Source: an uncultured Gammaproteobacteria bacterium
GTDB lineage: Bacteria; Pseudomonadota; Gammaproteobacteria; JACCXJ01
Assembly (NCBI GenBank): GCA_963764725.1
Contig: CAVXTM010000001.1
Coordinates: 1 to 64,000, forward strand
Reading direction: 5' to 3'
DNA length: 64,000 bases
Below, piece after piece: positions 653-49,822 of this stretch (the stretch's first letter is position 1; each line of letters opens with the position of its first letter). The position numbers were made by a program, and so were the translations under genes. Below the pieces are notes generated by a model. That model saw only the letters and a program-made list of their open reading frames with translations, did no database searches and was not told the DNA's origin.

Positions 653-2933
653 ATGCCCGCCCTCCTGCATCAAGTCCTCGCTTTCGCCACCCTGCGCGAC
701 GCTTGGCACAGGGTGCGAGAAAACCGGGGCTGCGCGGGCGGGGACGGGGAAACGCTGGAGCAGTTCGAGACGCATCTGGAGACCCAGCTCGCGGCGCTTC
801 GCAACGAGGTCGTTCAAGGCAGCTACGAGCCGCGTCCGCTCTTGAGCGTCGTCGTGGGATCTCCCGGCAAGCAGCCGCGGCAGCTCGCGGTGCCCGCGGT
901 GCGGGATCGGGTGCTGCAAACGGCGGCGGCGCTCGTGCTCACGCCCCTCTTCGAGGCCGAGTTCGAGGACTGCAGCTTCGCCTATCGCCGCGGGCGCTCG
1001 GTCGATCAAGCCGTCCGCCGCATCATGCAGTACCGGGATCAGGGCTTCCGCTGGGTTGTAGACGCGGACATCGCCTCCTTCTTCGCCGAGATCGATCACG
1101 AGCGCTTGCTGCGCGAGGTGGCCGAGCTGGTTCAGGACGTGCGGATCATAGATCTCATAAAGATATGGCTCAAAGCACCGCTCACGGACTTTGAGACGAC
1201 CTGGCGGCCGACGAAAGGCATCGCACTGGGATCGCCGATTTCGCCGCTGCTTGCGAATCTTTATCTCGATCATCTCGACGAGGCCCTGCTCGGGGAAAAT
1301 CTGCGCTTGGTGCGCTTCTCGGACGATTTCCTGGTCCTCTGCAAGCACGAGGAGCAGGCGGCGCGCGCGCTCGATCTCACCGAAGAGGTCCTGGGGGTCA
1401 TGCGATTGCGGCTGAATCGGGAGAAGACGCGCATCGTCGATTTCGAGCGCGGCTTTCGGTTCCTGGGGGTGGAGTTTGTCCGCAACCTGGTGCTTAAATG
1501 CCGCACGACCGACGAGCAAACCGACTACGCCGAGATGCTGCCGCCGGAGGAGCCGGGCGCCGATAACGCCGGTGCCGTTGTACGTGGAAGCCGAAGCGGT
1601 GCTGGTGGAGGCCGAGCCCGCGATCCAAGGGGCTTTGACGTTGGCCCTGACTGAGGTGCTTAAGCAAAAGCAGGAGGACACGGCGCCGGGCGCGGATGCA
1701 GAGGACAGCCTCGCGATCGACGACAGAGGAGGAGCCGACCGCGGACAGTGATCCTATCCTCCGCACCTTATATCTCATGGAGCACGGTTGCGTCCTGGGA
1801 AAAGAATCCGAGCGTCTGGTGGTGCGAAAGAACGGCGAGGTGCTGCAGGAGGTGCCGGCCATCAAGGTTGATCAGATCATGGTGTTCGGTAACTCGCAGA
1901 TCACGACCCAGGCGATGGCGTTCTGTCTCATCGAGCGCATCCCCATCGTGCTGCTCTCCGGCCGGGGCCGCTACTACGGGGTGATCGACTCGCTGGATAC
2001 CGATCCGGTCCTGCTGCAACGCGATCAGTTCCAACGGTCGGCCGATCCGGACTTCTGCCTTGAGGTGGCGCGGGCGATCGTGACCGGCAAGCTCCAGAAC
2101 ATGCGGCTCATCCTCCGGCGCTATGCGCGCAAGCGCGAGGCGCCGGCCTTGACGGCGGCCGAGCGGTCGCTGCAGGGCTTTGTTGCGGACATCGAAAAGG
2201 CCCGGACGCTCGATGCGCTACGAGGTTACGAAGGCATAGGCTCCAAGGCGTATTTCGAAGCGCTGCGCACGCTCTTGCCCGCGGCGTGGGGATTCAAGAA
2301 ACGCGTCCGCCAGCCGCCGACGGATCCGTTCAATGCCCTCCTGTCCTACGGCTACACCTTGCTCTTCTACAACATCTATGCCCTGGTGAGGGCGCGTGGT
2401 CTGAGCCCACACGCAGGCTTTTTGCATCCGCTCCGCGCCGGTCATCCGGCCCTGGTCTCGGATCTCATCGAGGAGTTCCGTGCGTTGGTCGTGGATGCCC
2501 TGGTGCTGTCACTGGTCCTGAATGGGCGCCTTGCCCTCGAGGATTTCACCTACGCCGAGACGCCGGATAATTCCGGTTCCAGTTCAAAAGTAGAACGCGA
2601 AGCCGACGAGCGAGCGACGAGACATACCGTAGATGGTAGGCGAGGAGTGAGTGAGGAAAGCCAGGCCCAGGGACGGCGCCTGCTTGGCGCGCCGAGGATG
2701 CAAGGCGACAAAGTTATACAATGAAATGGGAGCGGAATAAGGCCTGTATGCTCAGCGATGACGCACGCAAGACGTTCATCCACGCCTTCGAGGCCAAGAT
2801 GAACGCCGCGGTCACCCATCCCGCCACCGGCCAGCGGCTGGATTACCGGCGCTGTGTCGACGAACAGGTAATGACCATGGCGAGCGTCATCCGGGGCAAG
2901 CAAGTCTCCTACACGCCGATGGTGCTCAGATGA
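653..2933 (+). CDS. cas1: Reverse transcriptase-Cas1 fusion (about 700 aa reconstructed), broken by two +1 frameshifts (~1558, ~1723) and a MITE at 2571-2737
   Basis: RT motifs (PAVRDRVLQ, SFAYRRGRS, VVDADIASFF, GIALGSPISPLLANLYL, RFSDDF, FRFLG) in 653-1654; acidic linker in the 1476 frame; Cas1 motifs (RTLYLMEHG, RGYEG, NALLSYGY, GFLH, SDLIEEFR) in 1696-2570; Cas1 C-terminus in 2741-2933. Confidence 0.9.
2571..2737. mobile_element. 167-bp MITE-like insertion in cas1
   Basis: Flanked by TAA duplication (2568-2570, 2738-2740); imperfect 16-bp terminal inverted repeats TTCCGGTTCCAGTTCA / TGAAATGGGAGCGGAA (13/16); removal restores the cas1 frame ...YAETPD-KACMLSDD... Confidence 0.88.
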
Positions 2934-3212
2934 GTCGCTGGTGGATCGTCTCTTACGACATCAGCCGACGATGGGCGCCGCCGCCGGATCGCAGAGATCC
3001 TGGAGGGCTACGGCCAGCGCGTGCAATGGAGCGTCTTCGAGTGTTCTCTGGACGATCGGGTGCTCGAGGAGTTGCGGGCCCGTCTGCGCGAAGAGTTGGA
3101 CGGCGATGCGGACAGCCTCCGCTACTATCCGCTCTGCCTCTGGTGCCGCGAGCGGGTAATCTGGCGAGGACGGGGCATGGCCGCGACCGACTGGAAATAC
3201 ACCGTCGTCTGA
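2930..3212 (+). CDS. cas2: CRISPR-associated Cas2 (first copy), +1 frameshift near 2966
   Basis: WIVSYDI.DDGRRRRIAEILEGYGQRVQWSVFEC...DSLRYYPLC; overlaps cas1 stop (ATGA). Confidence 0.9.
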
Positions 3213-3262
3213 TTGCCAGATACAGGGATGTATCGCCTTACGCACCTAAGGATGGAACGCTT

Positions 3263-3540
3263 ATGTTCGTATTGGTGTGTTACGATATCACCGATGATCG
3301 ACGCCGCTATCGCGTTGCCTCCGAGCTTGAGAATTTTGGCTGCCGGGTGCAGTACAGCGTGTTCGAGTGTCATCTGGAGGAGCCGCAGCTACAAGAGCTG
3401 CAAGCGCGTTTGCTCGACCCTGATCGATGAAGCAAGAGGACCACGTGCGCTATTACGCGCTCTGTCCCAAAGATGAGACTGCGGTACTCGTCGACGGGTT
3501 GGGCCGGAAGACGCCCGACTGGGATTATCGGGTTGTTTGA
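3263..3540 (+). CDS. cas2: CRISPR-associated Cas2 (second copy), two +1 frameshifts near 3420 and 3437
   Basis: MFVLVCYDITDDRRRYRVASELENFGCRVQYSVFEC...DHVRYYALCPKD...DWDYRVV. Confidence 0.9.
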
Positions 3541-3770
3541 GAGTGCATCTCATTGTCAGCGGCCCGAATCGTCAAATTAACGCCGCATGGCGGAAAGCGC
3601 TTGCCGATCAGGAGGTTAGGCTAGTACCTCGTCACGCACGGGCAGATCCTTGATTTATCGAGAGAAACAGGCGAAAAACCGCTTGCATCGCGGACTTGAT
3701 TATGGCAATTTGGGCATGGGCCGCAGGGAAGGGAAATATTGAAAGTGTGTCAAGGAATTGCAGACGAAGG
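3541..3770 (+). promoter_or_regulatory. CRISPR leader
   Basis: Non-coding, lower-GC stretch between cas2 stop and first repeat. Confidence 0.75.
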
Positions 3771-5376
3771 GCTGTTTAACCGACCGGGATCAGAACGGGA
3801 TTGAAACTGTAGACAGCCAGAAGCTCCACTAGATGAAGTTGATCGGCTGTTTAACCGACCGGGATCAGAACGGGATTGAAACCTTCAGTATCTGCGAACA
3901 TGCTAGTCTGTCAACCTCATCGGCTGTTTAACCGACCGGGATCAGAACGGGATTGAAACATCCGATGCTTCGACGTCTCACGCCTGATCATGCTCGTGCT
4001 GTTTAACCGACCGGGATCAGAACGGGATTGAAACATGCTATGATCGACATGTCTAAGCTGCCAAGACTCTGCGCTGTTTAACCGACCGGGATCAGAACGG
4101 GATTGAAACCTGATCATGACGACTAAGCACGTTCGGCACACTCCTTGCTAGCTGTTTAACCGACCGGGATCAGAACGGGATTGAAACCTGTCCAGCTCTG
4201 GTCAACGATCAGGACTACATCGCTACGGCTGTTTAACCGACCGGGATCAGAACGGGATTGAAACCGTACCGCTGACTCGAGTCACCCAATACGTCATACC
4301 GGCTGTTTAACCGACCGGGATCAGAACGGGATTGAAACTTGATAGCCAGAACTGCGTCACGATTGCCAGCTGCCGACCAGTTGCTGTTTAACCGACCGGG
4401 ATCAGAACGGGATTGAAACAGTTATGCCGCATGTCTCATGCGCGATTGCTGAACCAGTGGCTGTTTAACCGACCGGGATCAGAACGGGATTGAAACGTCA
4501 TGGTCGACATCGGTCATCGACGGCAATCAGCAGCTGTTTAACCGACCGGGATCAGAACGGGATTGAAACTCATCTGAGACATCTTGCCCAGGCGATGTCG
4601 ATGCTGTTTAACCGACCGGGATCAGAACGGGATTGAAACTGTACTGCGAGCTTAGCGACGCTCGCGATGACGTGCTTGACGCATGCAGCTGTTTAACCGA
4701 CCGGGATCAGAACGGGATTGAAACTTCCTATGGCGAGACCGCTGTTTAACCGACCGGGATCAGAACGGGATTGAAACTAGTCGACGCATCGTGGGTCGCT
4801 GTTTAACCGACCGGGATCAGAACGGGATTGAAACTCATGCTCGGGTGCTTAGCTGGCTCGGTAGCATCGTGGCTGTTTAACCGACCGGGATCAGAACGGG
4901 ATTGAAACTTCTGCAGATCTGACGGTCACGCTCGTCGTCATCGCTCGATGGCTGTTTAACCGACCGGGATCAGAACGGGATTGAAACCGATGCGCTACTG
5001 CCGTACGCATTGGATACGCTGACGGAGCTGTTTAACCGACCGGGATCAGAACGGGATTGAAACCACTACGCTGATGATGCGATCGCGATATCCATCGCTG
5101 CGGCTGTTTAACCGACCGGGATCAGAACGGGATTGAAACTCCAATGCTGTGCCATCGGCATGACCCATAGCTCTCATTGAGCGCTGTTTAACCGACCGGG
5201 ATCAGAACGGGATTGAAACACAACTTGTCTGCAGCGACGCTGGCTACCTGCGTTGGTCGCTGTTTAACCGACCGGGATCAGAACGGGATTGAAACCTCAC
5301 GAAACTACGCTGTCAGCGGTCACTGTAAGATTGCACGTGGCTGTTTAACCGACCGGGATCAGAACGGGATTGAAAG
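3771..5376 (+). CRISPR. CRISPR array, 22 repeats of 37 bp (GCTGTTTAACCGACCGGGATCAGAACGGGATTGAAAC), 21 spacers of 16-48 bp
   Basis: Repeats counted directly; 21 identical, last ends GAAAG; ATTGAAAC 3' end, leader on the left and degenerate terminal repeat on the right give + orientation. Confidence 0.99.
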
Positions 5377-5381
5377 ATCGG

Positions 5382-5544
5382 ATGTAGGGTGGGTGAGCCG
5401 CGCTGTTTGCGGCGTAACCCACCAACCCGTCGGCCGCAGGCCGACACCTCAACCTGCTTGCGAAGCCGAAATCTAAGGTGACGCGCTTCGCGCGTCGGAT
5501 CGGTGCGTTACGGCGTAAAAAAGCACGCCTAACGCACCCTACAT
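5382..5544. repeat. Inverted pair of GTAG-family REP palindromes (REPIN-like)
   Basis: ATGTAGGGTGGGTGAGCCGC...GCGGCGTAACCCACC at left and GGTGCGTTACGGCG...CGCCTAACGCACCCTACAT at right; GTAG/CTAC feet with hairpins. Confidence 0.75.
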
Positions 5545-5776
5545 TCCTAGAGTCGACAATTTCAAATATCTTCGGCTAGGGACTTGAACGAGGCGGCCGC
5601 CTTTCGCACCGGGAGTGGGAGCTAATCCATAGTTACTCACGAACTTTTCGGAAGAGTCGAAAATTCTGTACCCAGCCCGCGCATTCCCTGTAACATGCAC
5701 GGCCCAGTATAGACACTTGGCATTAGGCTTGACTGGTAATCGTTCACGGAACCCCATAGAAACTTGGCACGCGACG

Positions 5777-8779: not shown

Positions 8780-9556
8780 TTAGTCGAACATCAAAGCGGT
8801 GAGCACGAAATCGAGCCCCAGCACCGCGAGGCTGGAGTTTACCACGGTCCGAGTCGTCGCGCGGCTGATGCCTTCCGCGGTGGGGGCCGTATCATATCCC
8901 TCGAATACGGCAATCCAGGTGACCGCGATGCCGAAGACAAGACTCTTGATGACGCCGTTCAGGATATCGTCCTGAAAATCAACCGCCGACTGCATCTGGG
9001 ACCAGAAAGCGCCCTCATCGACGCCAAGCAATCCCACGCCGACGAAGTAGCCCCCATAGACGCCGACCGCGCTGAAGATCGCCGCGAGCAAGGGCATGGC
9101 CAGGATCCCGGCGAGCAGCCTTGGCGCGACCACGCGGTGCAGCGGATCGACGGCCATCATCTCCATGGCCGCCAACTGCTCGGTGGTTTTCATGAGCCCG
9201 ATCTCGGCCGTCAAGGCCGAACCGGCGCGCCCCGCGAACAGCAGCGCCGAGACCACCGGTCCGAGCTCGCGCACCAGCGACAATGCCAGCAGGATCCCGA
9301 GCGACTCCTCGGCGCCGAAATCCACCAGGGTGTTATAGCCTTGCAACCCTAGCACCATGCCGACGAAAAGCCCCGAAACCACGATGATGACGAGCGACAG
9401 CACCCCGAGCGCGAAAACCTGCAAGGTGAGTAAGCGCCAGCGATATAGCGTGGCCGGCAACCCGCCGAGGGTGTATAGCAGAAAGATGTGTCCGCGCCCG
9501 AGGCGCTCGAAAAAGCTCAATCCGGCGCGGCCCAAGGCGCGCAGCGGGCTCATCAC
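8780..9556 (-). CDS. mlaE: ABC permease MlaE
   Basis: [27 protein letters not shown]. Confidence 0.95.
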
Positions 9557-10377
9557 TCGTCACCTCCCGCCAATAAATCCTCGGCAATGTCGCGCGCCGG
9601 GTAGTGGAAGTGCACCGGGCCGTCGGGGCGAGCGTCCATGAATTGCCGTACCCATTCGGAGTCGCTGACATCGAGTTGATCGGGCGTGCCCTCACCGATG
9701 ATCTTTCCGCCGGAAAGCACGTAAATGTAATCGGCGATCGACGCCGTCTCGCGCACATCGTGCGACACGATGACGCTGGTGGTGCCGAGGGCCTCGTTCA
9801 TCTGCTCGATGAGGCGCAACAGGACCCCCATGGAGATAGGATCCTGACCGGTAAAAGGCTCATCGTACAGGATGATCATGGGATCGAGCGCGATGGCCCT
9901 GGCCAGGGCGACCCGGCGCGCCATGCCGCCCGAAAGCTCGCTCGGCATCAGATCGCGTGCGCCCCGCAGCCCCACCGCCTCGAGCTTCATCAGCACCAAA
10001 TCCCGGACCATCCGCTCGGGCAGCCGGGTGTGCTCGCGTAACGGGAAGGCCACGTTATCGAACACCGAGAGATCGGTTAAGAGTGCACCGCTCTGGAACA
10101 GCATGCCCATGCGCTGGCGCAAGCTCATCAACGCTCCTCGCGATAACGCCGTGACCTCCTGCCCGTCGACCTGCACACTCCCCGATAGGGGCTTGAGCTG
10201 ACCGCCGATCATGCGCAGCAGGGTGGTTTTACCGCAGCCGCTCGGTCCCATGATGGCCGTGATCTTTCCGCGCGGCATGGATAAATCGATGTGGTCGAAG
10301 ATGTCTCGCTCGCCACGGCGGAAACAGAGATCACGGATACGGACGAGAGGTTCTAGGTCTTGATTATTGTTTTGCAT
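9553..10377 (-). CDS. mlaF: ABC ATPase MlaF
   Basis: Walker [33 protein letters not shown]. Confidence 0.95.
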
Positions 10378-10467
10378 TGGCCTTATGGAGGCGTGAGGGC
10401 GTGATTCTCGGGAAGTCGCGGCCCAAGGTCAACCCGAGCGCCGAAATTGCCGCCGGAGCGCGGCGAC

Positions 10468-10599
10468 TGCTAGAGGGCTAAAGATGGAAGAACTAAAAGG
10501 GCGCTCACTGATGATCCGTGCGGGTGGCGATAATTATTCCGACCTGCCCGACAAGGGAGGCGGGGCGGCGCCCGCATCGCCTGCGGCGTCATCCCGTAA
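10468..10599 (+). pseudogene. sodC: C-terminal fragment of Cu/Zn superoxide dismutase
   Basis: LKGRSLMIRAGGDNYSDLPDKGG then frameshift to ARIACGVIP*; matches the SodC C-terminus (usually [22 protein letters not shown]); N-terminal part absent. Confidence 0.75.
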
Positions 10600-10993
10600 C
10601 CGGGCGGCGCGCCGGATCCTCAAGCAGCTCGATCTTGTAGCCGTCGGGGTCTTCCACGAAGGCGAGCACGGCCGTACCCCCTTTCATCGGCCCGGCGTCG
10701 CGCACGATCTTGCCGCCGCGCCCGCGGACCGCCTCGCAAGCCGCGTACACGTCATCGACGCCGATAGCGATATGCCCGTAGCCGTTTCCCGGCTCGTACC
10801 GGCTGGTGTCCCAATTGTGCGTAAGCTCTAAGACGGCCGTGTCGCGCTCCTCGCCGTAACCGAGATAGGCCAAGGTAAAGCGGCCCTCGGAATAATCGGC
10901 CCGCCGCAACAGCGTCATGCCGAGAACCTCGGTATAGAATTGCAATGAGCGGCCGAGATCCCCGACCCGTAACATGGTATGCAACATACGCAT
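10589..10993 (-). CDS. gloA: Lactoylglutathione lyase (glyoxalase I)
   Basis: [37 protein letters not shown]. Confidence 0.95.
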
Positions 10994-11040
10994 TGGTGAC
11001 GCCTCCCAAAAGTTCCTAAAACGTTATCACATGGAGGTAT

Positions 11041-11733
11041 CTAAACGGAATATAGCCGCGGCCGGCCCTGTGGCCTCGCTTCGCGCCGCTGCCCCGTCAT
11101 GCGCTCTATCTTGGCATGGAAGCGCCCATTTCCCAAGGGCTGACTTTGGTTCAGCGCGAGTCGTATGGCGCGGAGGGTCTTCTCATCGAGAGGGGACTGG
11201 AACAAACCGCGGTAGGCCACTCGCCGTGCCTTGTCGGCCGGCCCGAGTGCCAGGTAGACCCGATGAGGGATTAGCAGCGGTGACACTTGTCCGAGGGCGT
11301 TGGCTCGGTAACTGGTCCAACGGTAATGGGCCGGATCGTCCACCATCGCCGCGCGAACGGGATTGAGTTCGATGTAACGCATGGCGGTGAGTAGATTGGT
11401 CTCCGCCTGGATAAGTGAGGACTTGTAACGGCTCTCCCAGAGCGTGCCCGTACGCCGGTACTCCCGGTTGATATACTGCACGTAGCGCCGGCCCAAGGAG
11501 ATGATGAGCTTCGGTACCGCCGCTGCTCTCTTGGGGGTGAGGAGCAGGTGCACGTGGTTGGGCATGAGTGCATAGGCATGTAGCGAACAGCCTGTCTCCT
11601 TCAATGCCTCACCTAGCCAGCGCAGGTAGGTCACGTAGTCTTCTTCTCCAAAGAAGCACGGCTCGCGGTGGTGGCCGCGTTGCGCGATGTGCAGGGGCAT
11701 TCCATCGAGATGAACACGCGGGTGGCGGGGCAT
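11041..11733 (-). mobile_element. Y1 (HUH) transposase, REP-associated tyrosine transposase-like
   Basis: MPR..R, HIAQRG, AYALMPNHVHLL (HUH), RYIELNPVRA, YRWTSY; short AAACCGAGCCTGGCCCC motif upstream (~11754). Confidence 0.85.
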
Positions 11734-12017
11734 GATCCCAATATATCATGAACAAACCGAGCCTGGCCCCTATAGTCTCCAGACATCGGCCGGGTCTTTG
11801 CCGAAATGTTCTGCAATGCCAGCGACAACACTTTGATCGCAGAGAGCGCTCTCGATTCCATGTAGTGGAAGAACAGCATTTATGGCAGGATCCCAGTGCC
11901 GACCTCGATCCGGGTTATGAAGCGCCGGGTGCAACGGGACAATCGCGGTGGAAAACGTACCGCGAATATGTCAGGCTGCGGGTGTGGCGCGGTCTTGTCC
12001 GCTAACCTCTTTCGCTC

Positions 12018-13070
12018 ATGGAAACCCAATTACTTCGCAACTGCTGGTATCTGGCGCAGTCAGGCAGCCACCTCAAGCACGGCCAGCTGATCGCCAAGAC
12101 CCTGCTGGGCGAACCGGTGGTGATCGGCCGGCGCGACGATGGCGGCGTTTTCTGTCTGCGCAACATCTGCCCACACCGTGGCATTCCCCTCAGTTACGGC
12201 TGGCTCAAGGACTGCACCCTGCAGTGCTGCTACCACGGCTGGACCTTCGATACGCGCAACGGCGCCTGCGTCGAAATCCCTTCGCTCCCGCCGGATGACA
12301 CTAGTCTTCCGCTGAGCGCCATCAAGGTGCGTTCCTATCCCTGCCGGGAGGTGCAGGGCAACGTCTGGGTGTTCGTGCCCGGCGAGGGTTACGCGGAAGG
12401 CCAGGCGCTGCCGCCGGTGCCGCTGATCCCGGATTTCCCCGAAGATGCCCGGCCGCAAGTCGGTGAGACCAGGCATTTTCCCTGCAACGTCGACCACGCG
12501 GTCATGGGCCTGATGGACCCGGCGCACGCTTCCTACGTGCACACCTCCTGGTGGTGGCGCGCGCGCAATCTCAAGCTGCGCGAGGTGAAAAAGGACTACG
12601 AGCCCATCCCCAACGGTTTCCGCATGGTGCGTTACGAACTGAAGCAGAGCGCCAAGCTCTACAAGCTGCTGGGGCAGAACGTGTCCACCGAGATCAGCTT
12701 CCAGCTGCCCGCGGTGCGCATCGAGCACATCAAGTGCGACAAGCACACCGTGGTGTCACTGACCTGCTGCACCCCGCTTAACGACACGGAGAGTGAGGTG
12801 CACCAGTTCCTGTACTGGACCTTGCCGCTGCTGACGCTGCTCAAGCCCGTGGCGCGCAGCCTGCTGCACAGATTCCTCAGCCAGGACCGACAGGTGGTGG
12901 TGAGGCAGGAAGAGGGCCTGCGCTACAAACCGCCGATCATGTTCATCAAGGATACCGACACCCAGGCCAAGTGGTACTTCAGCCTCAAGCGCGAGTGGGA
13001 CAAGAGCCAGCAGGAGAAGCGGCCGTTCAACAATCCGGTGAAGGCACGGACACTGCGCTGGATGAGTTGA
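12018..13070 (+). CDS. Rieske [2Fe-2S] oxygenase (VanA/PaO-like alpha subunit)
   Basis: CPHRG...CCYHGW Rieske motif; DPAHASYVH mononuclear iron motif. Confidence 0.9.
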   Translation: METQLLRNCWYLAQSGSHLKHGQLIAKTLLGEPVVIGRRDDGGVFCLRNICPHRGIPLSYGWLKDCTLQCCYHGWTFDTRNGACVEIPSLPPDDTSLPLSAIKVRSYPCREVQGNVWVFVPGEGYAEGQALPPVPLIPDFPEDARPQVGETRHFPCNVDHAVMGLMDPAHASYVHTSWWWRARNLKLREVKKDYEPIPNGFRMVRYELKQSAKLYKLLGQNVSTEISFQLPAVRIEHIKCDKHTVVSLTCCTPLNDTESEVHQFLYWTLPLLTLLKPVARSLLHRFLSQDRQVVVRQEEGLRYKPPIMFIKDTDTQAKWYFSLKREWDKSQQEKRPFNNPVKARTLRWMS

Positions 13071-13260
13071 TGACCCTTAAAACCGTGTGAGCGCGAATAG
13101 GAGCAACGACATGAGGCATCGGTGGTTCACAATCTACCTTGGCCTTTCCATTGCGGTACCCGATTGAGTTAAAATTGCCACCTTTATAACTAACACGCCG
13201 AATGTACAGCCGGGGGTTGGACGGACGCGACAACCGCCGAATATCTCCGCGAGAACACCG

Positions 13261-14256
13261 ATGAGCGGCTACAAGGCCTTTCGGGTCCATCAAGAGGACG
13301 GGAAGATCCACGCCCGGATCGAAACCCTGCAGCGGGAAGATCCGCGCCCCGGCGAGGTGCTGATCCGCGGTGTTTATTCCAGCGTGAATTACAAGGACGC
13401 GCTCGCCGCCACGGGAGCAGGAAAGATTCTGACGCGCTTTCCCTTGGTGGCGGGGGTCGATATTTCCGGAATCGTCGCGGAGTCGGATGATGCTCGCTAC
13501 CGGCCCGGCGACAAGGTGCTGGTGACCGGCTATGACTTCGGCGTGAGTCGCGATGGGGGCTACGCGGAGTTTGCGAGTGTCCCGGCCGAGTGGGTAGTGC
13601 CCCTGCCCGCGGGTTTCTCCTTATACGAAGCGATGGCGATCGGTTCCGCAGGGTTTACGGTCGCCATCTGCGTGAAGCGCTTGGAAGATAACGGGCAAAC
13701 GCCGGCCAGCGGCCCGGTGGTGGTTACGGGTGCGACCGGGGGTGTGGGGAGCCTCGCGATTGATATTCTCGCCGGACGCGGATACGAAGTGGTTGCGGTT
13801 ACCGGCAAGATGGCGGAAGCGCTCTATCTGCGCAGCCTTGGCGCGCGCATGGTCTTGGACCGCAATACGCTCGATCTGGGATCGCGGCCGCTCGAAAAAG
13901 GCCAATGGGCGGGCGCCATCGATAACGTCGGCGGGAAGCTGCTCGCCTGGCTTACCCGGACCCTGCGCCCGTGGGGGAATATCTGCGCGGTGGGTCTAGC
14001 GGGCGGCAGCGAGCTGCATACTACCGTTATGCCCTTTATCCTGCGCGGCGTAAGCATACTAGGCATCAGCTCCGCGGGCTGCCCGACGGAGCTCCGGCAG
14101 GCGCTGTGGCAACGGTTGGCCGCGGATCTGCGGCCGCGTCATCTCGATAAGATTGCCGCGCGCACGGTGGCATTGGAAGATCTGCCCGCGGTTTTCGGCG
14201 CGATGCTCCAGGGACAAGCGCGAGGGCGGACGGTGGTTAAGATCGCCGACGAATAA
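13261..14256 (+). CDS. acuI: YhdH/AcuI-family NADPH oxidoreductase
   Basis: YSSVNYKDALA, VTGATGGVGS, TTVMPFILRGV. Confidence 0.85.
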   Translation: MSGYKAFRVHQEDGKIHARIETLQREDPRPGEVLIRGVYSSVNYKDALAATGAGKILTRFPLVAGVDISGIVAESDDARYRPGDKVLVTGYDFGVSRDGGYAEFASVPAEWVVPLPAGFSLYEAMAIGSAGFTVAICVKRLEDNGQTPASGPVVVTGATGGVGSLAIDILAGRGYEVVAVTGKMAEALYLRSLGARMVLDRNTLDLGSRPLEKGQWAGAIDNVGGKLLAWLTRTLRPWGNICAVGLAGGSELHTTVMPFILRGVSILGISSAGCPTELRQALWQRLAADLRPRHLDKIAARTVALEDLPAVFGAMLQGQARGRTVVKIADE

Positions 14257-27702: not shown

Positions 27703-27900
27703 CCATGGCGTGCTCTCGCCCTACGCCAGGCTGCGTCCCGAGATCATTCCATCCTCGGGGCGCCAAGCAGGCAAACATCCCTGTGCCTGGCTCCAGGCGC
27801 GTCAATCAACGCCACTGACACCTCAGACGATCCCGGTGACGTGCCCCAGCGCTCGGCGTCTGCGCGCATGAGCTGGGCCCGGCTGCTTAAGCGGGTGTTC
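27703..27900 (+). pseudogene. IS91-family transposase C-terminal remnant containing a 44-bp insertion
   Basis: HGVLSPYARLRPEIIP...ARMSWARLLKRVF reads in one frame after removing 27749-27792. Confidence 0.75.
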
Positions 27901-28105
27901 GGGGTATAGGGGATAGGAAACCAAGGTCAGCCTCGTTTCCCCGATCCCCGACTTCACCATCCTGTCACATGTAGGACATTCGTTGACATCAGAATGGGCC
28001 TTCGTCCGATTTCAACCGTCTATTGCGGCCCGGACAATACGCGGTCATGCCGCAAGCTCATGTCGGGCGGCGGGTTTGAGCACTAAATCCAGAGAGGAGA
28101 CACCG

Positions 28106-41686: not shown

Positions 41687-42941
41687 GTATAACGATTCTA
41701 TAAAACATTTACTTTTATGAGTAGCGGTGTCATCCTGGCTTCCCAGGCTTATCCATGGTCTGGGAGGGTGATGATGGCGGGAAAGACAAGGCGGGCGGCG
41801 CTGGAGGTTTCGGCAGATGAACGCAAGAGGTTGGAGCGTTTGCGGGATTCGCGCAAGGCGCCGAAGCGGGAAGTCGAACGCGCGGCGATCCTGCTGCGCT
41901 ACGCCGTGGGTGAGGGTCCGGCGGCGATCCAACAGGCGTTGGGGGTGAGCCGGCCGACTATTTACAAATGCATCGACAAGGCGCTGGCGGCCGGGGTGGA
42001 CGCTGGACTGAAAGATCACTACCACCGCCCCAAGGAGCCGCTGATTACACAGCAGGCGAAGGCGTGGGTGTTGAATATAGCGTGCACGAAGCCCACCGAT
42101 CATGGCTTGGCGGCGGAGTTGTGGACGCTCTCCGCGCTCGCCCGCTATACCCGCGAGCACGCCCCTGTCGCGGGGCATGGGAGCCTGGCGCAGGCGGGCA
42201 AGGCCACGATCTGGCGCATCCTGCACGCTGCTGAGATCAAACCCCATAAGGTGGAGTACTACCTGGAGCGCCGCGATGCGCAGTTTGAAGAGAAAATGTG
42301 CGAGGTGTTGATGGTCTACCAGGAAGTCGCCCTTGCCAATGCCGCGCAGGCCTTGGGCGAGGACGCCGGTTCGGTCATTACCGTCAGCGTGGACGAGAAA
42401 CCGGGCGTTCAGGCGATCGAGACTACCGCGCCCGATTTGCCGCCGGTGCCAGGGCAGCACGGCACCTGGAGTCGGGACCACGAGTACCAGCGCCATGGAA
42501 CCCTGTCCATTCTCGCGGCCGTTGACTTGCACACCGGCGAAGTCATCGCACAAGTTCATCCGCGCCACCGTAGCCGCGAGTTCATCCTGCTGCTCAAGGA
42601 ACTCGATGAGCACTACCCGAAGGCGTGCACCATTCGCGTGATCCTGGACAACCATTCAGCGCATATCTCCAAGGAAACCATGGCCTACCTCGCTTCTCGG
42701 CCCAACCGGTTCATCTACGTCCATACGCCTAAGCATGGCTCTTGGCTGAACCTGATCGAAACCGTGTTCGGAAAAATGGCCCGTACGTTCCTCAAGGCTA
42801 TACGCGTCAAGTCTCGCGAGGAACTTAAGAAGCGCATCTTGCAAGGTGTGCATGAGATGAATCTCGCCCCAGTCGTTGTGCGCTGGACGAAGTTCGATCT
42901 GGGGCTGGCATAACAGTAAGCTAATTGATGAATCGTTATAC
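41687..42941 (+). mobile_element. Complete IS630-family element
   Basis: Inverted repeats GTATAACGATTC / GAATCGTTATAC, TA duplication (41685-41686, 42942-42943), palindromic target ATAC-TA-GTAT. Confidence 0.92.
41771..42913 (+). CDS. IS630 transposase
   Basis: HTH N-terminus; DDE: SVDEKPG, ILDNHSAH, SWLNLIE. Confidence 0.93.
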   Translation: MMAGKTRRAALEVSADERKRLERLRDSRKAPKREVERAAILLRYAVGEGPAAIQQALGVSRPTIYKCIDKALAAGVDAGLKDHYHRPKEPLITQQAKAWVLNIACTKPTDHGLAAELWTLSALARYTREHAPVAGHGSLAQAGKATIWRILHAAEIKPHKVEYYLERRDAQFEEKMCEVLMVYQEVALANAAQALGEDAGSVITVSVDEKPGVQAIETTAPDLPPVPGQHGTWSRDHEYQRHGTLSILAAVDLHTGEVIAQVHPRHRSREFILLLKELDEHYPKACTIRVILDNHSAHISKETMAYLASRPNRFIYVHTPKHGSWLNLIETVFGKMARTFLKAIRVKSREELKKRILQGVHEMNLAPVVVRWTKFDLGLA

Positions 42942-43700: not shown

Positions 43701-44012
43701 TTCCTCAACCCAACTATGCGGGCTCAAAGTATAGTGCTGCCCCTTCGTCCTGTACTAGAGAAATAGATAGCATAAGTGGGCCCAATGTGCTACATTGCCA
43801 ATGCCCAACGTGTTTTCTAGCTAGGGCATTTGGTGACTTCCCTCCCGAATGCAGCGCGCTTCTATCCACCGCTTCCTTCCTGAAGTTCTCGCCCAATACC
43901 CAGCGCTCCAACTGGAGCCAAACATGGATGGTAATCCCTCTGACTAGATGATAGTCGGAGGAACTTTCGAGAATACTGCGTCCGCTATTGAGGCGGGCAT
44001 GGAGCTATAGAA

Positions 44013-44306: not shown

Positions 44307-44312
44307 CCGCGT

Positions 44313-44460
44313 TGTCAACGATGATTGAAAATTGACCCACTTTTTAGAAAACGGCGATCTAATTTTGATCCACTAGATTGTGGGGTTATTGGGAGTGTAT
44401 GTAAAACACCGGCGTTGCGTTTATCTTTTAGTCGATAGCTCTCTCCTTGGATGTGTGCGA
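44313..44460 (-). mobile_element. IS21-family right end (IstB C-terminus plus terminal repeat)
   Basis: IQGESYRLKDKR on minus strand; TGTCAACG...AAAATTGACCCA terminus with a second internal copy. Confidence 0.7.
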
Positions 44461-44607
44461 GAGGGGCTTGGACCGCCGCGGACCTCAGATAGGTTGCAAC
44501 GGTCTCCATCAGGTGACCCGCCTGCTCATGCCGCTTTCCCAGGAAACCGCGTAGTCGCCAATAGAGTTCCTCCCGTTATCGTCGGCTTCATGCCACAAGG
44601 ACTCTAA

Positions 44608-46872
44608 ATGCTTGGCACCCTGCAACACATCGTGCAACAGGTCAATGAGGCGGCCAACCTCGACGAGGCCCTCGCCATCATCGTGCACCGGGTCAAGGAA
44701 GCAATGGCTGTTGATGCATGCTCGGTCTGTATAAAAAACGCAACCGCCGATCACTATGTCCTGATGGCGTCCGACGGCCTCAATCCTGAGTCCGTCGGCA
44801 AAGTCCAATTGGCCGCTAACGAGGGTCTCGTCGGACTGATTGCAGCCCGCCAGGAACTGGTCAATCTAGAAAACGCCGCTGATCATCCAGCCTACCGCTA
44901 TGTTCCTGAGACGGGGGAAGAACGCTACCACAGCTTCCTCGGTGTTCCCCTGGTGCATTTTCGTAAGGTGGTGGGCGTGCTCTACATCCAGCGGCACACA
45001 CGACAGATGTTCGGCCAGGACGAGGTGGCCTTTCTCGTCACCATTGCGGCTCAGCTTGCGGGTGCCCTGAACTCCGCAGCGCCGGACGGCGTTATCACCG
45101 TCTTGCAGAACGATAGGCCCCATAGTGTTAGTTTCAACCAGGGATTGCCCGGTGCGCCCGGGATCGCCATCGGGACGATCGTTCTGCCCTCGCCGTTCGC
45201 GAGCCTCGAGTCGGTCTCGGATCGCGCGCTTCAAGACCTTGTCGTGGAAGAGGCGGCCTTTCGAGAGGCCGTCAGCGCCGTGCAAGAGGAGCTACGCAAC
45301 AGCGCAGAGCTCATGGCGACCCGACTCCCCAGTGAGGCACGTGCCATTTTCGATGTCTATGCGCTGATGTTAGGCAGTGACAGTCTGGTGGAGAAGACGG
45401 TCGCGCGGATCCGGGCTGGCAATTGGGCACCTGGCGCGCTGCGCGACACGATCGCAGAGCATGCGAGGGCTTTCGATCAGATGGAAGACCTCTATCTCCG
45501 GGGCCGGGCCGAGGACGTTCGCGCCATTGGTCGTCGTATCCTCATGTACTTGCAATCCGATGCGCGCGAACCGCGCGCGTACCCGGAAAACAGTATCTTG
45601 CTGGGTGTTGAGGTCAGTCTCGCGCGTATCGCCGAGGTCCCGGCGAACCGACTGGCAGGTGTCGTCTGCCTGCGCGGCTCGGTGCTCTCCCATATTGCGA
45701 TCATCGCCAAGGCTCTGGGCATTCCTGCCGTCATGGATCTAGGGCATCTCCCGATTGGAAACCTGGAGGGTCATCCGATCGTGGTCGACGGCTATCAAGG
45801 GCGGGTGTTTATCGATCCTTCCCCGATAGTCATCGAGGAATTTGAGCGGCTCGTTCACGCGGAGAAGGAACGCACCGTCGAACTGAGGAAATTGCGTGAC
45901 TTGCCTGCGGAAACACTGGACGGGGTGAAGGTGACGCTGAACGTCAATATCGGGCTCATATCCGAGACCAACGAGGTGGAGGAAAGTGGCGCAGACGACG
46001 TAGGGCTATACCGTACCGAGTTCACGTTTATGGTGCGTCACGCCTTTCCCGTGGAGGATGAGCAATACCACGTCTACCGCCAGATACTGGAATCCTTTGC
46101 CCCAAAACCAGTGACCATGCGCACCTTGGACGTGGGTGGGGACAAGCCCTTGCCCTACTATCCTATAAAGGAAGACAACCCGTCTTTGGGCTGGCGAGGG
46201 GTCCGCTTTACCCTGGATCATCCCGAGATCTTCTTAATCCAGCTTCGGGCCCTGCTACGGGCCAATGCGGGGCTCAACAACCTGCGCCTCCTTTTCCCTA
46301 TGGTAAGCCAAGTCCATGAGGTCAAGGAGGCCCGGGCACTACTGGCTCGGGCCCACCGTGAGCACCTCGAGGAAAGGAGAGACTCCGCCATGCCGCCGGT
46401 GGGTATGATGATCGAGGTGCCTTCGACCGTCTACCAGGTTCCGGCACTCGCCAGGTACGTTGATTTCTTCTCCATCGGGACTAATGATCTTACCCAACAC
46501 CTGCTTGCCGTAGACAGAAACAACCCGAATGTGGCGAGGCTTTACGATAGCCTGCACCCGGCGGTGCTGAGGGCGTTGCGCGCCGTTACCAGGATCGCCC
46601 GACGGTATGGTAAACCCGTGAGCGTCTGTGGCGAGATGGCGGGTGATCCGGCTGCCATGATCTTGCTGCTCGGGATGGGCATTGATACGTTCAGTATGAG
46701 CGCAGGGAGTATCCCACGGATTAAATGGGCGATCCGCAGTATTACCCGCAGGCATGCGAAAGCGGTTCTCCGGGAGGCGCTGCAGATGGACAACGCCCGG
46801 GATATCCGCCAGATGCTGAACAGCGAGCTCGAACAGGCGGGCCTCGGCGGGCTTATTCGGCCGGGTAAATAA
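44608..46872 (+). CDS. ptsP: GAF-containing PTS enzyme I (Ntr)
   Basis: N-terminal GAF (PETGEERYHSFLGVP), phospho-His GSVLSHIAI, GLYRTEF, RTLDVGGDK, FSIGTNDLTQ, CGEMAGDP. Confidence 0.93.
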   Translation: MLGTLQHIVQQVNEAANLDEALAIIVHRVKEAMAVDACSVCIKNATADHYVLMASDGLNPESVGKVQLAANEGLVGLIAARQELVNLENAADHPAYRYVPETGEERYHSFLGVPLVHFRKVVGVLYIQRHTRQMFGQDEVAFLVTIAAQLAGALNSAAPDGVITVLQNDRPHSVSFNQGLPGAPGIAIGTIVLPSPFASLESVSDRALQDLVVEEAAFREAVSAVQEELRNSAELMATRLPSEARAIFDVYALMLGSDSLVEKTVARIRAGNWAPGALRDTIAEHARAFDQMEDLYLRGRAEDVRAIGRRILMYLQSDAREPRAYPENSILLGVEVSLARIAEVPANRLAGVVCLRGSVLSHIAIIAKALGIPAVMDLGHLPIGNLEGHPIVVDGYQGRVFIDPSPIVIEEFERLVHAEKERTVELRKLRDLPAETLDGVKVTLNVNIGLISETNEVEESGADDVGLYRTEFTFMVRHAFPVEDEQYHVYRQILESFAPKPVTMRTLDVGGDKPLPYYPIKEDNPSLGWRGVRFTLDHPEIFLIQLRALLRANAGLNNLRLLFPMVSQVHEVKEARALLARAHREHLEERRDSAMPPVGMMIEVPSTVYQVPALARYVDFFSIGTNDLTQHLLAVDRNNPNVARLYDSLHPAVLRALRAVTRIARRYGKPVSVCGEMAGDPAAMILLLGMGIDTFSMSAGSIPRIKWAIRSITRRHAKAVLREALQMDNARDIRQMLNSELEQAGLGGLIRPGK

Positions 46873-47016
46873 AATGATCCCGGTTGCCAAACGGGTCGTG
46901 GCCGTGAGCGATTGCGGGTGTTCCGGAAGTTGCGCTGATCTCGGTCGGGTCAAGGCGTTTAGGATCCCGCAAAAATGTCGGCGGTTCACGAGCACCATCG
47001 ACGCAGAGGGTAGGTC

Positions 47017-47514
47017 ATGTCTAAGCTAGCACTGAAGATCCAACGCTACTGCAAGAGCTTGCTGCTCTTGGAGCTTCTTAAAGAGCTCGCGCTCACGGGG
47101 CGACACTTGCAGGAAGAAGATCACGATTTTCTATCCGGAGGAAAAGACGCCACAATCGGGACGGTTTCGAGGCCTCCATGCGCTGCGGCGCTATCCGAAT
47201 GGAGAAGAGCGGTGTATCGCCTGCAAGCTCTGTGAGGCCGTGTGCCCCGCAGTAGCCATTACGATCGACTCTGAGGAGAGGGCAGACAGAACTCGGCCAC
47301 GACACGATACGACATCGACTTGTTCAAGCGTGTTTACTGTGGCTTCTGCGAGGAGGCATGCCCGACAGATGCCATCGTGCAGACACGGATTTTCGAGTGG
47401 CATTACGAGAAGCGAGGCGACGAGGTCATCGGCAAGGAGCGCTTGCTGGCGATCGGCGACCGCATGGAAGCAGAGATCGCAGCGAACCGTGCGTTGGATG
47501 CACCCTATCGGTGA
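47017..47514 (+). pseudogene. nuoI: NuoI-like gene, frameshifted (copy 2)
   Basis: [17 protein letters not shown]...[45 protein letters not shown]...DAPYR across frames. Confidence 0.8.
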
Positions 47515-47571
47515 CAGCTCCACATCTGCTCAGCTGTCAGCGGACGTGGCTAAAGCTCGGAGAAGAGGTTT

Positions 47572-47757
47572 ATGGTGGAGCACAAGATAGAGATGAGAAA
47601 TTCTAGACAACTCTCACCCACGGATAACCTTGAGGCGCAGGACTCGTTGGAAGTGGATAAAGCACTCGATGAGGCACTGGAATTGACGTTTCCCGCGAGC
47701 GATCCGATTGCTGTGTCGCCCGGCGCACCGCATCAAACTCCGGCCTCTCTTGGCTGA
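47572..47757 (+). CDS. Small conserved hypothetical protein
   Basis: [14 protein letters not shown] motif; GAGG RBS. Confidence 0.55.
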
Positions 47758-47777
47758 ACCAGCCCTTTCGGCTGCCG

Positions 47778-48917
47778 GTGTCTCAATACCATCGCCAAGC
47801 TCCGTTGAAAGAGAGAAACCTGCGTGGGGCACGTCCTCCCAGCTCGCTACCCATTTCGGTGCCGCTCATTGTCCTGATTTTGTTGGCGGGGATCGGCCTG
47901 TGGACGTCTTACTACACGATTCCGGCCGAGTCAGAGGGCGTTGTGCTCCGATTCGGAAAGTACATCGATAAGGTCCCGCCAGGTCTGCATTTTAAACTCC
48001 CGTTCGGAATCGACGCCGTCATCGCGGTACCGATCCAGCGGCAGTTGAAACAGGAGTTCGGCTTCGCCACCCCCGACGCCACCCATCCGGATCAGGTGGG
48101 GGCCGAACCAGCAAAAGAACAATCCATGGTCACGGGAGACCTCAATTCCGTGCTGGTCGAGTGGATCGTGCAATACCGTATCACCGACTCGGAGAAATAC
48201 TGGTTCGCGGTGCGCGAGCCGGGCCAAACGCTACGCGATATCTCCGAGTCCGTCATGCGGGAGGCGGTCGGGGATCGGACGGTCGACGAAGTCATCACGG
48301 TGGGGCGGCAAGATATTGAGACTACCGCCCTCAACCGGATGCGCGAGATGGCGGAGCGCTATCATCTGGGCGTATCTGTCGACCAGGTGCAGTTGAAGAA
48401 CGTAAATCCGCCCGAGCCCGTACAAGCCTCCTTTAATGAGGTGAACCGGGCGCAGCAGGACCGGGAGAATTTTATCAACGTGGCCAACGGTGAGTACAAC
48501 AAGGCCGTGCCCCGTGTGCGCGGGGAGGCGGACCAGAAAATACGCGCGGCCGAGGGCTTGCTCGAACGCATCCACCAGCGCATGATCAGCGAGCGGCTAC
48601 AGATCGTGCAGCGATTCCGTTCCGAAGGAGCGGGCGAGGCCGCGCGGATCTCCGGGAAGAAGGAACGCGACATTAACGAGATCGTGTCCACGGCCTACAA
48701 GCGGGTGCAGGAGATCCGTGGAGAGGCGGACGCCAAGGCCACGGAGATCTACGCTAAAGCTTACACGCAGCGGCCTGAAGCGGCCGACTTCTACAGGTTT
48801 CTGAAGAGCATGGCAACCTATCGCAAGGTCATCACCAACGACGCCACGATCGTCCTCTCAACCAACAGCGATCTCTTCGCACTGCTCAGGCGCATTGAGC
48901 CGAAGAGCCGAGACTAG
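47778..48917 (+). CDS. HflK-HflC chimeric SPFH protein
   Basis: HflK-like to YNKAVPRVRGEADQKIRAAEG, then abruptly HflC-like RMISER...RFRSEG...IRGEADA...FYRFLKSM. Confidence 0.8.
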   Translation: MSQYHRQAPLKERNLRGARPPSSLPISVPLIVLILLAGIGLWTSYYTIPAESEGVVLRFGKYIDKVPPGLHFKLPFGIDAVIAVPIQRQLKQEFGFATPDATHPDQVGAEPAKEQSMVTGDLNSVLVEWIVQYRITDSEKYWFAVREPGQTLRDISESVMREAVGDRTVDEVITVGRQDIETTALNRMREMAERYHLGVSVDQVQLKNVNPPEPVQASFNEVNRAQQDRENFINVANGEYNKAVPRVRGEADQKIRAAEGLLERIHQRMISERLQIVQRFRSEGAGEAARISGKKERDINEIVSTAYKRVQEIRGEADAKATEIYAKAYTQRPEAADFYRFLKSMATYRKVITNDATIVLSTNSDLFALLRRIEPKSRD

Positions 48918-48938
48918 ATGCCTAGTTGTGTGCATTAA

Positions 48939-49822
48939 GGAACCTCTGAACAAGAAATCAAGAATGGTTGCGCGGCGTGCATACGAATCGATTTCAGACG
49001 GAAACGCGGCCGGGAGGCCCGTTTTTCATCGTTCAGGGGCCATTTTCGCGCCGTTTACCATGCTGCAGACATACTACGCCCCCGACAGTCGCCACAGCCG
49101 CCGGCGCATCAGGTACAGATTGGTCAGCGCACAGGTGACGAACAGGCGGTGTGCGCTCCATCCTCAGGGCGCCAAGCAGGCCCATCCTTGGGCCTGGCTC
49201 TCTTCGCCAACCCCTTGTAGCGGGTCTTCACGAAGCCGAAGATACGCTTAATGATGAGAAAGGGGTGCTCGACCTTGGCGCGCACGCTGGACTTGGTTTT
49301 GTTCTTCGCCCGTTGGATAACGGTAACGTCGATGGGTGAAATCGGTGGCCTTCGGTGCGTGCTTGCGTATGACCTCACTCTGCCCCTGATAGGCCGAGTC
49401 GCCCCAGACGCATGTCTCCTCCCCGTGCAAGAGATCGGGCAGACACACCGAGTCGTGCACATGGGCCGGGGTGGCGACCACCGCGTGGATGAGCTTGGTT
49501 TGACTGTCCACACCGATGTGCGCTTCATCCCGAAATACCACTGATTGCCTTTCTTGGTCGGATGCATGTCCGGGTCACGGCACTTGTCTTTGTTCTTGGT
49601 CGAGGGCGGGGCGCTGATAATCGTGGCATCGACAATCGTGCCGGTGCCAATCTTGATGCCCTGGCGCTCCAAGTACCCATGCACCTGCTCGAACAGCTTC
49701 TCACCCAGCCCATGTGCCTCCAACAAATGGCGGAAGCGCAGCACCGTGGACTCATCGGGCACCGGCATCTCCCCCAAGTCGATGCCCGCAAACCGGCGCA
49801 TCGACACCGAGTCGTACAGGGT
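48939..49822 (-). mobile_element. Truncated, frameshifted IS5-family element
   Basis: PDESTVLRFRHLLE, TIVDATII.APPSTKN, QWYFGMK, VRAKVEHPF; terminal GGAACCTCTGAACAA after TTAA. Confidence 0.85.

Follow-up and report, generated by a model that had tools for sequence, protein, structure and literature searches.

A 44- to 45-nucleotide single-hairpin element with clean insertion sites in uncultured Gammaproteobacteria

The 64,000-nucleotide stretch of contig CAVXTM010000001.1 analysed here (the window, from an uncultured Gammaproteobacteria bacterium) is proteobacterial in character, has a G+C content of about 59%, and contains an RT-Cas1-Cas2 locus (RT, reverse transcriptase), a CRISPR array, genes for FtsK, LolA and SerS, several insertion sequence (IS) remnants, and a gene for a Y1 transposase of the HUH type that resembles RAYTs, tyrosine transposases linked to repetitive extragenic palindromic (REP) sequences. 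Dispersed through the window are copies of a hairpin-bearing element of 44 or 45 nucleotides (nt), the subject of this work, and of a longer form of the same element.

Copies in the window and in related genomes

Three copies of the element had been placed in the window by a sequence-only reading, and all three were recovered as hits of a covariance model (R1) that was built from 47 distinct copies (alignment A1) and run over the whole window with filters off (Table 1). The same profile scan added a fourth copy. The segment 2659-2700 of the sequence-only reading is the core of copy 1, whose full ends were set by the logic of filled and empty sites. A 23-nt motif from the 5' part of the element matched the window four times at three or fewer mismatches and not once in 100 dinucleotide-preserving shuffles. 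Copy 4 is a long form, with the 5' arm and outer stem of the short form and about 40 nt of small hairpins instead of the loop, and can be aligned with the long forms at loci L013, L073 and L079 (L numbers designate loci from the genome scan given below).

Table 1. Copies of the element, their host elements and a candidate transposase gene in the window. MITE, miniature inverted-repeat transposable element; TIR, terminal inverted repeat.
Feature	Positions	Strand	Evidence
Copy 1, short form, 45 nt	2657-2701	minus	Model R1, 72.1 bits, E 1.5e-17 (model span 2654-2704)
Copy 2, short form, 44 nt, in IS91-family remnant	27749-27792	plus	Model R1, 58.6 bits, E 6e-14 (model span 27746-27797)
Copy 3, short form, 44 nt, in IS5-family remnant	49158-49201	plus	Model R1, 63.2 bits, E 3.7e-15 (model span 49155-49204)
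Copy 4, long form, 83 nt	58620-58702	minus	Model R1, 34.5 bits, E 1.8e-7 (model span 58657-58705)
Doubtful degenerate fifth copy, between two cas2 genes	3209-3258	minus	Model R1, 12.6 bits, E 0.15
MITE-like repeat, 175 bp, splits cas1, carries copy 1	2568-2742	minus	Broken cas1 frame; same repeat in L044
IS91-family (HUH Y2) transposase C-terminal remnant, host of copy 2	27704-27908	plus	tblastn with ISCR2 transposase, residues ~392-447
IS5-family transposase remnant, host of copy 3	49095-49864	minus	Pfam DUF772/DDE_Tnp_1; NCBIfam IS5, E 1e-49; tblastn
Truncated palindromic TIR-bearing MITE, host of copy 4, ends approximate	58548-58744	minus	Aligns with F1/F2 MITEs
RAYT-like Y1 (HUH) gene, candidate mover only	11041-11733	minus	Pfam Y1_Tnp, E 8.6e-14; NCBIfam REP_Tyr_transpos

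A second, diverged subfamily may exist that keeps the layout of the element but has a CCATCCTTAGG-type arm, another stem and a TGGC-type end. The doubtful copy at 3209-3258 would belong to it, and so would a weakly scoring copy (L013:952-985; 20 bits, E 0.0036) that stands in tandem with a long-form copy inside an IS91-family tnpA gene.

A scan of genome contigs with a degenerate 22-position pattern gave at least 104 loci, and true family copies are present in 76 of the 104 listed (L001-L104). The other 28 belong to unrelated phyla and lack the element's 3' half. The model search covered L001-L100, in which 78 of 94 hits scored at least 28.8 bits, every one of these within the MAG group described next; L101-L104 lay outside it, L103 and L104 being inspected otherwise, and the flanks of L081-L104 are only 300 nt long. 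The sources are 13 metagenome-assembled genomes (MAGs) labelled Gammaproteobacteria or Chromatiales, including USCg_Taylor, Frasassi, Lehman Caves, MGR_bin175, SAR169 and the SD80xx series, and almost all copies come from one uncultured gammaproteobacterial group of USC-gamma-like MAGs from soil and caves. Three more copies lie on contigs of MAGs with other labels (L009, L037 and L069), of which L009 (1.2 kb) and L037 (5.1 kb) are short. Counts per MAG include values of at least 14, 12, 9, 8, 8 and 8. Copies at corresponding loci are kept across MAGs and are better conserved than their flanks: the L045/L066 pair is 84% identical over 2 kb with only 2 changes in the element, the L019/L041 pair is 82% identical with 3 changes in the element, and the elements of L027/L061 are identical.

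The element had no match in plasmid or phage collections, and a literature search with its motif strings returned none. No Rfam family matched it in eight loci at E values up to 1, and at gathering score Rfam detected only one tRNA in the window. The search pattern also matched another conserved sequence (L001, L010, L049, L052, L067, L071, L091 and L100) in Nitrospirota, cyanobacterial and other MAGs; it is 90% identical over about 440 nt between L001 and L049, and is unrelated to the element past the first 22 nt.

Structure and insertion sites of the element

Many copies share longer flanks and were grouped into flank families. The sites used for counting were taken once per family from the 47 rows of A1, with other family members and all long forms excluded, which gave 26 sites. 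The unit was 45 nt long at 17 of these and 44 nt at eight; the long form measures about 83-90 nt. The unit begins with G or C, continues with an invariant arm (CATCCTC, three variable bases and GCGCCAAGCAGG) and a hairpin, and ends in GGCTTY. The invariant 5' arm spans about 19-22 nt, and the alignment contains no TIRs, as had been proposed from the window alone. The 45-nt form, as in copy 1, is free of stop codons in all six frames.

The hairpin stem is formed by CAGG(G/C).. pairing with ..(C/G)CCTG. Paired cells made up 96.1% of the stem in the alignment, compared with 83.7 +/- 1.3% in shuffles, none of 500 reaching the observed value. Compensatory changes were evident, one pair being GC in 24 copies and CG in 20, and another CG in 24 and AU in 6. 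Covariation also links base 1 of the element to base 11 (GC in 38 copies, CG in 8, other in 1), and both states are found with several hairpin types; base 1 therefore belongs to the element. The folding z-scores of single copies against shuffles were 0.57, 0.14, -2.03 and -0.49, and support for the hairpin comes from covariation rather than from folding stability. The short hairpin suggested earlier was right in kind, and the CAAGGATG/CAGGGATG "core" ascribed to it corresponds to the loop and the 3' arm.

The loop of the long form is replaced by about 40 nt that contain three small hairpins. Long and short forms interchange at the same place between the same flanks, as seen in L069 vs. L002 and in L044 vs. 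copy 1 of the window, L044 having the same MITE-like repeat with a long form at the position of copy 1. The long-form insert was considered as a separate element and rejected, as all 14 true occurrences of its motif (13 in the loci, and copy 4) lie inside a mini-element; the other 10 matches to the motif look like chance.

Four independent pairs of filled and empty sites reveal clean insertions of 44-45 nt. The first two involve arm A and arm B of one palindromic, TIR-bearing MITE: family F1 is filled in arm A and empty in arm B, family F2 has the reverse arrangement, and their empty sites read GCG-TT-CCG, the filled sites having 45 additional nt between TT and C. An inversion within the MITE as the origin of the arm-B copies was ruled out, the 3' flank being arm-B sequence. 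The third pair lies in an IS91-family tnpA gene that is filled in L054 and empty in L013, and the fourth is a copy nested in the loop of a long form, which is filled in L038 and empty in L079, L013 and copy 4 of the window. Each of the four inserts is placed between TT and C, begins with G, ends with GGCTTY, adds 44-45 nt and has no clean duplication. Duplications of 1, 2 or 3 bp were each tried, and none fits all four pairs without extra mutations. The tiny non-autonomous insertion unit of the sequence-only reading is thus borne out.

The IS5 and IS91 remnants of the window provide two further cases at the protein level. Alignment of the IS5 remnant with an Acidovorax IS5 transposase gave KGLAK, the insert, and SAHRLF, and removal of the 44 nt restored the spacing of the reference. 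Against the ISCR2 transposase, HGVLSPYARLRPEIIP and GASINA...MSWARLLKRVF of the IS91 remnant fall on adjoining residues, with 24 residues from P to M in each, although the ISCR2 matches themselves are weak, with E values of 0.016 and 5e-6 and, in another search, 1e-4 for the right-hand piece. Both references have equal spacing without the 44 nt, which agrees with the interruption of IS genes proposed before. The proposal that removal of 44 bp restores both frames holds locally; elsewhere the IS5 remnant has decayed, changing frame at two more places and having lost its first ~83 residues. The plasmid collection contained no DNA match to the IS91-remnant region, and its matches to the IS5 region lie only away from the insertion point.

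The target is GGCGTT^C-like, with insertion between T and C. Across the 26 sites the preferred bases were G at position -5 (17/26), C at -4 (23/26), G at -3 (17/26), T at -2 (18/26), T at -1 (25/26) and C at +1 (23/26). The four empty sites have GTTC (two sites) or CTTC (two sites) across the insertion point, and the insert splits this tetranucleotide. The 3' end of the element together with the flanking C (GGCTTT^C) almost re-creates the target. Head-to-tail tandems, which would be expected if the end can itself act as a target, were found in L104 and L013. Location of targets in hairpin loops was uninformative (13 of 26 sites vs. 52% of controls, in a run with imprecise end trimming). Rebuilt empty sites had a mean folding energy of -3.35 kcal/mol vs. 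-2.27 for 576 random TTC sites, and 9 of 5000 resamples were as low; this effect is weak and confounded by G+C content, L031 was trimmed 2 nt short, and no claim is drawn from it.

An ordinary MITE, moved by a DDE transposase with a 2-3-bp duplication (TT or TTC), would account for some features of these junctions. The T residues at both junctions make such a duplication formally possible, and a gain of 45 nt can be read as an element of 42-43 nt plus a duplication of 2-3 bp. Copy 3 has CTC on either side, and the C-type copies in L019, L041 and L063 have TTC on either side. We regard this origin as very unlikely, as the element has no TIRs, the would-be duplicate differs in all four pairs (TTG on the left vs. 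TTC or TTT on the right), the 3' TT is kept when the 5' flank is GT or AT (L004, L009, L031 and L033), and the base before CATCC covaries with an internal base and is hence part of the element.

Conservation of the element might also reflect an immobile functional motif, such as a terminator, a protein-binding site or an RNA element, that was spread by recombination or convergent selection. The corresponding-locus copies that outlast their flanks (L045/L066 and L027/L061), the invariant 5' arm, and the placement of copy 4 just downstream of a gene with which it shares its orientation are consistent with such a role. The four insertion polymorphisms, resolved to the single base and including one inside a coding sequence and one inside another copy, contradict a functional motif as the sole explanation, and no Rfam family matches; we consider this explanation extremely unlikely. 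A host function could have been acquired after insertion, alongside mobility. A sigma-54 promoter on the reverse strand was examined by eye and rejected because its spacing does not fit.

Mode of movement and candidate enzymes

The short specific target, the target-like 3' end, the subterminal hairpin, and the lack of TIRs and of a clear target-site duplication point to HUH-type transposition as the likeliest chemistry. The copies probably constitute a REP-like family of single-hairpin transposable elements that are very small and non-autonomous, with HUH-type single-strand cutting and joining as the most likely mode of movement. The reaction would resemble that of IS200/IS605, REP/RAYT or IS91 systems: an enzyme would bind the hairpin and make two cuts, one after the ..TT that flanks the element on the left and one after the ..TTY with which it ends on the right, and the freed strand would be joined into a similar site that is single-stranded at the time. 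The AAG that stands immediately 5' of the hairpin's foot may serve as a guide, as it is complementary to the CTT of GGCTTY at the cut sites and, in part, to the target. Cleavage-site bases in IS200/IS605 and REP systems pair with a guide tetranucleotide located 5' of the hairpin foot, and the target flanks the left end (PMC6006769, PMC3479197). HUH genes are present here, and the candidate enzymes are the RAYT-like Y1 protein of the window and IS91-family Y2 transposases of the same genomes.

Several observations weigh against this interpretation. Single copies, except for copy 3, fold no better than shuffled sequences, and the 3' end of copy 2 lacks the usual TY. The guide and cut-site columns hardly vary, which places their pairing beyond the reach of covariation. 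The T residues at both junctions leave room for a short duplication, and both MITE arms have an unexplained correlation of the base two positions ahead of the element with its last base (C goes with C, T goes with T or C, and in one case C goes with T, in F1/F2 copies such as L008, L022, L025 and L090); the empty arms always have TT. Neither the GT[AG]G nor the CGTC tag of REPs, located 0-2 nt from the hairpin foot, occurs in the 47 copies of A1, which have CCAAG before the foot and GCTTY after it, on either strand, and the element has one hairpin whereas IS200/IS605 elements have separate hairpins at the left and right ends. With regard to the enzyme, no copy lies near the Y1 gene (9477-13813 contained no model hit even at E up to 10), no HUH gene flanked by the element or sharing its ends was found in the window and locus flanks, and the element has no likeness to the ends of ISCR2, which at 56% identity is the closest of the plasmid IS91 relatives examined.

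The element works like a REP or like a miniature element of the IS200/IS605 or IS91 type, yet fails defining features of each. It shares with REP and REPIN-RAYT systems (REPINs, REP doublets) a short single hairpin with a conserved 5' extension, a length of 44-45 nt that falls within the 21-65 nt of REPs, tens of dispersed copies per genome in one lineage that are kept at corresponding loci, and a RAYT-like gene that occurs once in the genome. REPs, too, are known inside open reading frames (ORFs), palindromic repeats and transposase genes (PMC3733652, PMC6006769). The conserved 5' arm of about 19-22 nt differs from that of REPs, which is 4 nt, and the copies are singlets, the few pairs being head-to-tail (L104, L013) or nested (L038) and not inverted doublets as in REPINs. 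Clean empty sites define a specific target for the element, and we know of no REP for which such a target has been established.

The IS200/IS605 elements IS608 and ISDra2 likewise have no TIRs and no clear target-site duplication, insert 3' of a short specific sequence, and have a subterminal hairpin, a possible guide 5' of its foot and a target-like right end. PATE-like elements are non-autonomous derivatives of IS200/IS605. The present element differs in its total length of 45 nt, and the 1-kb locus flanks contained no tnpA or tnpB partner that shares its ends.

The RAYT-like Y1 gene was the mover suggested by the sequence-only reading, which would make the element an unusual REP in a REP-RAYT system. 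The best NCBIfam match of its protein is the model for REP-associated tyrosine transposases (E 9e-19), and the translation contains the HVH and Y-x3-NP motifs, Y---NP being a class 2 signature (PMC6006769). The gene is single-copy in the window, as is typical for RAYTs (PMC5581495), and the E. coli enzyme TnpA-REP is monomeric, acts on one hairpin and cuts at a dinucleotide on either side (PMC3479197). The score of 67.8 bits, however, is below the curated cut-off of 80, and the GTAG tag is absent from the element. REPtrons have flanking REPs (PMC6006769), whereas none was found around the gene (9477-13813), where repeats were limited to short chance-like matches. Long class 2 proteins with C-terminal extensions (subclass 2.1) are reported to occur without nearby REPs (PMC6006769). 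Relatives of the protein near the element amounted to one 39-amino-acid fragment among the 104 listed loci and two reference loci. These findings make the Y1 gene an unlikely mover and lend at most weak support to its proposed role. The broader proposal that an HUH enzyme moves the element retains the support of the HUH-like anatomy and not that of this gene.

The fragment mentioned above is a Y1 pseudogene piece at L069:520-636 that is 79% identical to the RAYT-like protein of the window and lies a few hundred bases from a copy. A short IS200-like C-terminal remnant (HUH Y1) at L070:491-829 is located at a similar distance of a few hundred bases, and the 1-kb flanks of the loci contained no other trace of a Y1 gene.

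IS91-family genes are physically associated with the element. A tblastn search with the ISCR2 TnpA over 105 sources detected IS91-family tnpA fragments at or next to the element in seven (L013, L031, L046, L054, L064, L092 and the window), which is far above the genomic share of such genes. These seven sources have ten copies at about six sites in tnpA, about six of them antisense and two sense. One possible reason for the excess is that the element is moved by an IS91-family enzyme, another that single-stranded IS91 intermediates are good targets. An IS91-family Y2 rolling-circle transposase might thus be the mover within the HUH framework, the element being a minimal ori-plus-ter unit or a guest that enters those intermediates.

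Several properties of the IS91 family (IS91, IS801, IS1294 and ISCR) fit this alternative. Its members use HUH chemistry, produce no target-site duplication, have subterminal palindromes, one of them next to the ter cut site with a tetranucleotide there that resembles the target, and form a single-stranded circle (PMC13181058). Their reported tetranucleotide targets, CTTG, GTTC and GTCC, always have T second (PMC13181058), and all four empty sites of the element have GTTC or CTTC. IS801 mobilises miniature right-end fragments of 229-679 nt (PMC3189936). The element is far smaller than these miniatures, the known ones being 229 nt or longer, and also than the 82-89-bp ends of mini-IS91 constructs (PMC13181058). 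It inserts inside the tetranucleotide GTTC or CTTC and not adjacent to it, its orientation relative to tnpA is mixed, and neither CATCC nor GGATG occurs within 500 nt of the dissimilar ends of ISCR2, which is a plasmid relative and not an element of the clade. An IS91-family mover is therefore possible, although we lean against it.

The mode of movement of REP-like elements is itself unsettled: cutting and joining of REP DNA by the E. coli enzyme is known in vitro, but the mechanism of propagation is described as unclear (PMC3479197, PMC6006769). The family studied here offers base-resolved filled and empty sites in four contexts, a target mirrored in the element's own end, a covarying hairpin, and a first base that covaries with base 11. 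With these handles, it becomes straightforward to assay one or two candidate enzymes for cleavage and strand transfer. To our knowledge, natural insertion sites resolved to the base are rare.

Association with mobile DNA and neighbouring features

All four firm copies in the window lie within mobile-element DNA. Two of the hosts, those of copies 1 and 4, belong to MITE families that spread together with the module, and these copies do not count as independent hits on mobile DNA; the module is multiplied along with some host MITE families. The MITE that contains copy 4 lacks its right TIR and is located just downstream of a DUF938 gene. Pfam analysis of the flanks of 27 solo loci (150 ORFs of at least 88 amino acids near the element, with five solo loci that have flanks of only 300 nt left out) detected a transposase domain in four, L009 (IS110), L013 and L054 (IS91) and L058 (DDE), and the remaining loci are beside ordinary genes. 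The later tblastn search with the ISCR2 TnpA detected IS91-family fragments in three more of the 27 (L031, L046 and L060). Most solo loci being beside ordinary genes, the element is not confined to mobile DNA.

Survival of the element only in mobile DNA, one of two options raised by the sequence-only reading, is refuted by the 23 of 27 solo loci without a transposase domain, even with the three that later gave IS91 fragments. The other option, targeting of mobile DNA, is opposed by the same majority and has in its favour the transposase genes that were hit, which are of the IS91 family (7 of 105 sources), IS5/IS1182-like and IS110. Transposase genes, above all those of the IS91 family, are over-represented among the hosts. 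Tolerance of insertions in such DNA explains much of the pattern, but the excess at IS91-family genes is real, and a preference for IS91-family DNA may exist in addition, which would mark IS91-family genes as a preferred landing place. The earlier interpretation as a whole is therefore retained for the tiny insertion unit and its HUH-like anatomy, and abandoned for confinement to mobile DNA and for the Y1 gene as mover.

Transposase ORFs remain open through the element in L058, L009, L092 and L013, whereas copies 2 and 3 of the window, each 44 nt long, shift the frame. Rickettsia palindromic elements (RPEs) and intragenic REPs behave like the former group, with lengths divisible by three, no stop codons and open host frames. 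RPEs are longer and have a CGTC tag (PMC3733652). The open-frame hosts of the present element, unlike those of RPEs, are transposase genes, and the two genic copies of the window break their frames. In genome annotation, the element accounts for frameshifts and for odd inserts of 15 residues in the transposase genes of the clade. In L027 (942-2021, minus strand) and L061, the stop-to-stop frame of a squalene-hopene cyclase runs through the element just past the end of the Pfam match, and the last residues of this protein, with its stop region, may come from the element.

These patterns raise the question whether the element is dedicated to parasitising or controlling insertion sequences and seeks out their transposase genes. 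The mobile hosts of the four window copies, the three transposase families hit, the 45-nt form without stops in six frames and the transposase frames that stay open all agree with such a role. The low share of solo loci with a transposase domain, the copies that travel with MITEs, the copies next to ordinary genes that are kept in the MAG pairs L045/L066, L027/L061 and L019/L041, and the tolerance of dead IS copies to insertion argue against it. By rough estimate, moreover, a 45-mer of 70% G+C is stop-free in six frames about 18% of the time. A dedicated parasite of this kind is accordingly improbable in our judgement. Equally doubtful, in our view, is a bolder version in which the element would be the smallest self-sufficient HUH substrate yet seen, using one hairpin and one guide for both ends, preferring intermediates or genes of IS91 and other insertion sequences, and remodelling or disabling transposases as a parasite of parasites. 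If this were true, a stop-free element of 15 codons would temper IS activity in slow-growing soil and cave bacteria.

Apart from its own movement, the element acts as a building block of larger repeats. It contributes to composites (MITE families F1/F2, F3 and F5) together with other optional hairpin modules, as in bacterial interspersed mosaic elements and other mosaic repeats; the larger units, unlike mosaic repeats, have TIRs of their own and look like DDE-type MITEs that the module has entered. The repeats of these little-known relatives of atmospheric methane oxidisers are assembled from nested hairpin modules. The palindromic MITE superfamily (F1, F2 and F3; loci L003-L103 and ~58548-58744 of the window) consists of units of 170-330 bp with shared TIRs and optional nested hairpin modules. 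A 66-nt module of three hairpins is present in L008 and L017 and absent from L003, L007 and L043, and several copies of the palindromic MITE are located at contig ends.

The region 647-5375 begins with the RT gene (647-1651), whose best match is a group II intron RT/maturase below the cut-off, and continues directly with cas1, two cas2-like genes and the CRISPR array (3770-5375). The MITE-like repeat that breaks cas1 suggests that the adaptation module is probably dead. A link between the element and the CRISPR array was rejected, the array having an unrelated 37-nt repeat. The IS5 remnant that hosts copy 3 is part of an IS graveyard (49095-51251) that also contains fragments of an rve_3 integrase core (49545-50108) and of an ISL3 zinc ribbon (50744-51169), and an intact-looking IS630-family gene is present at 41717-42913.

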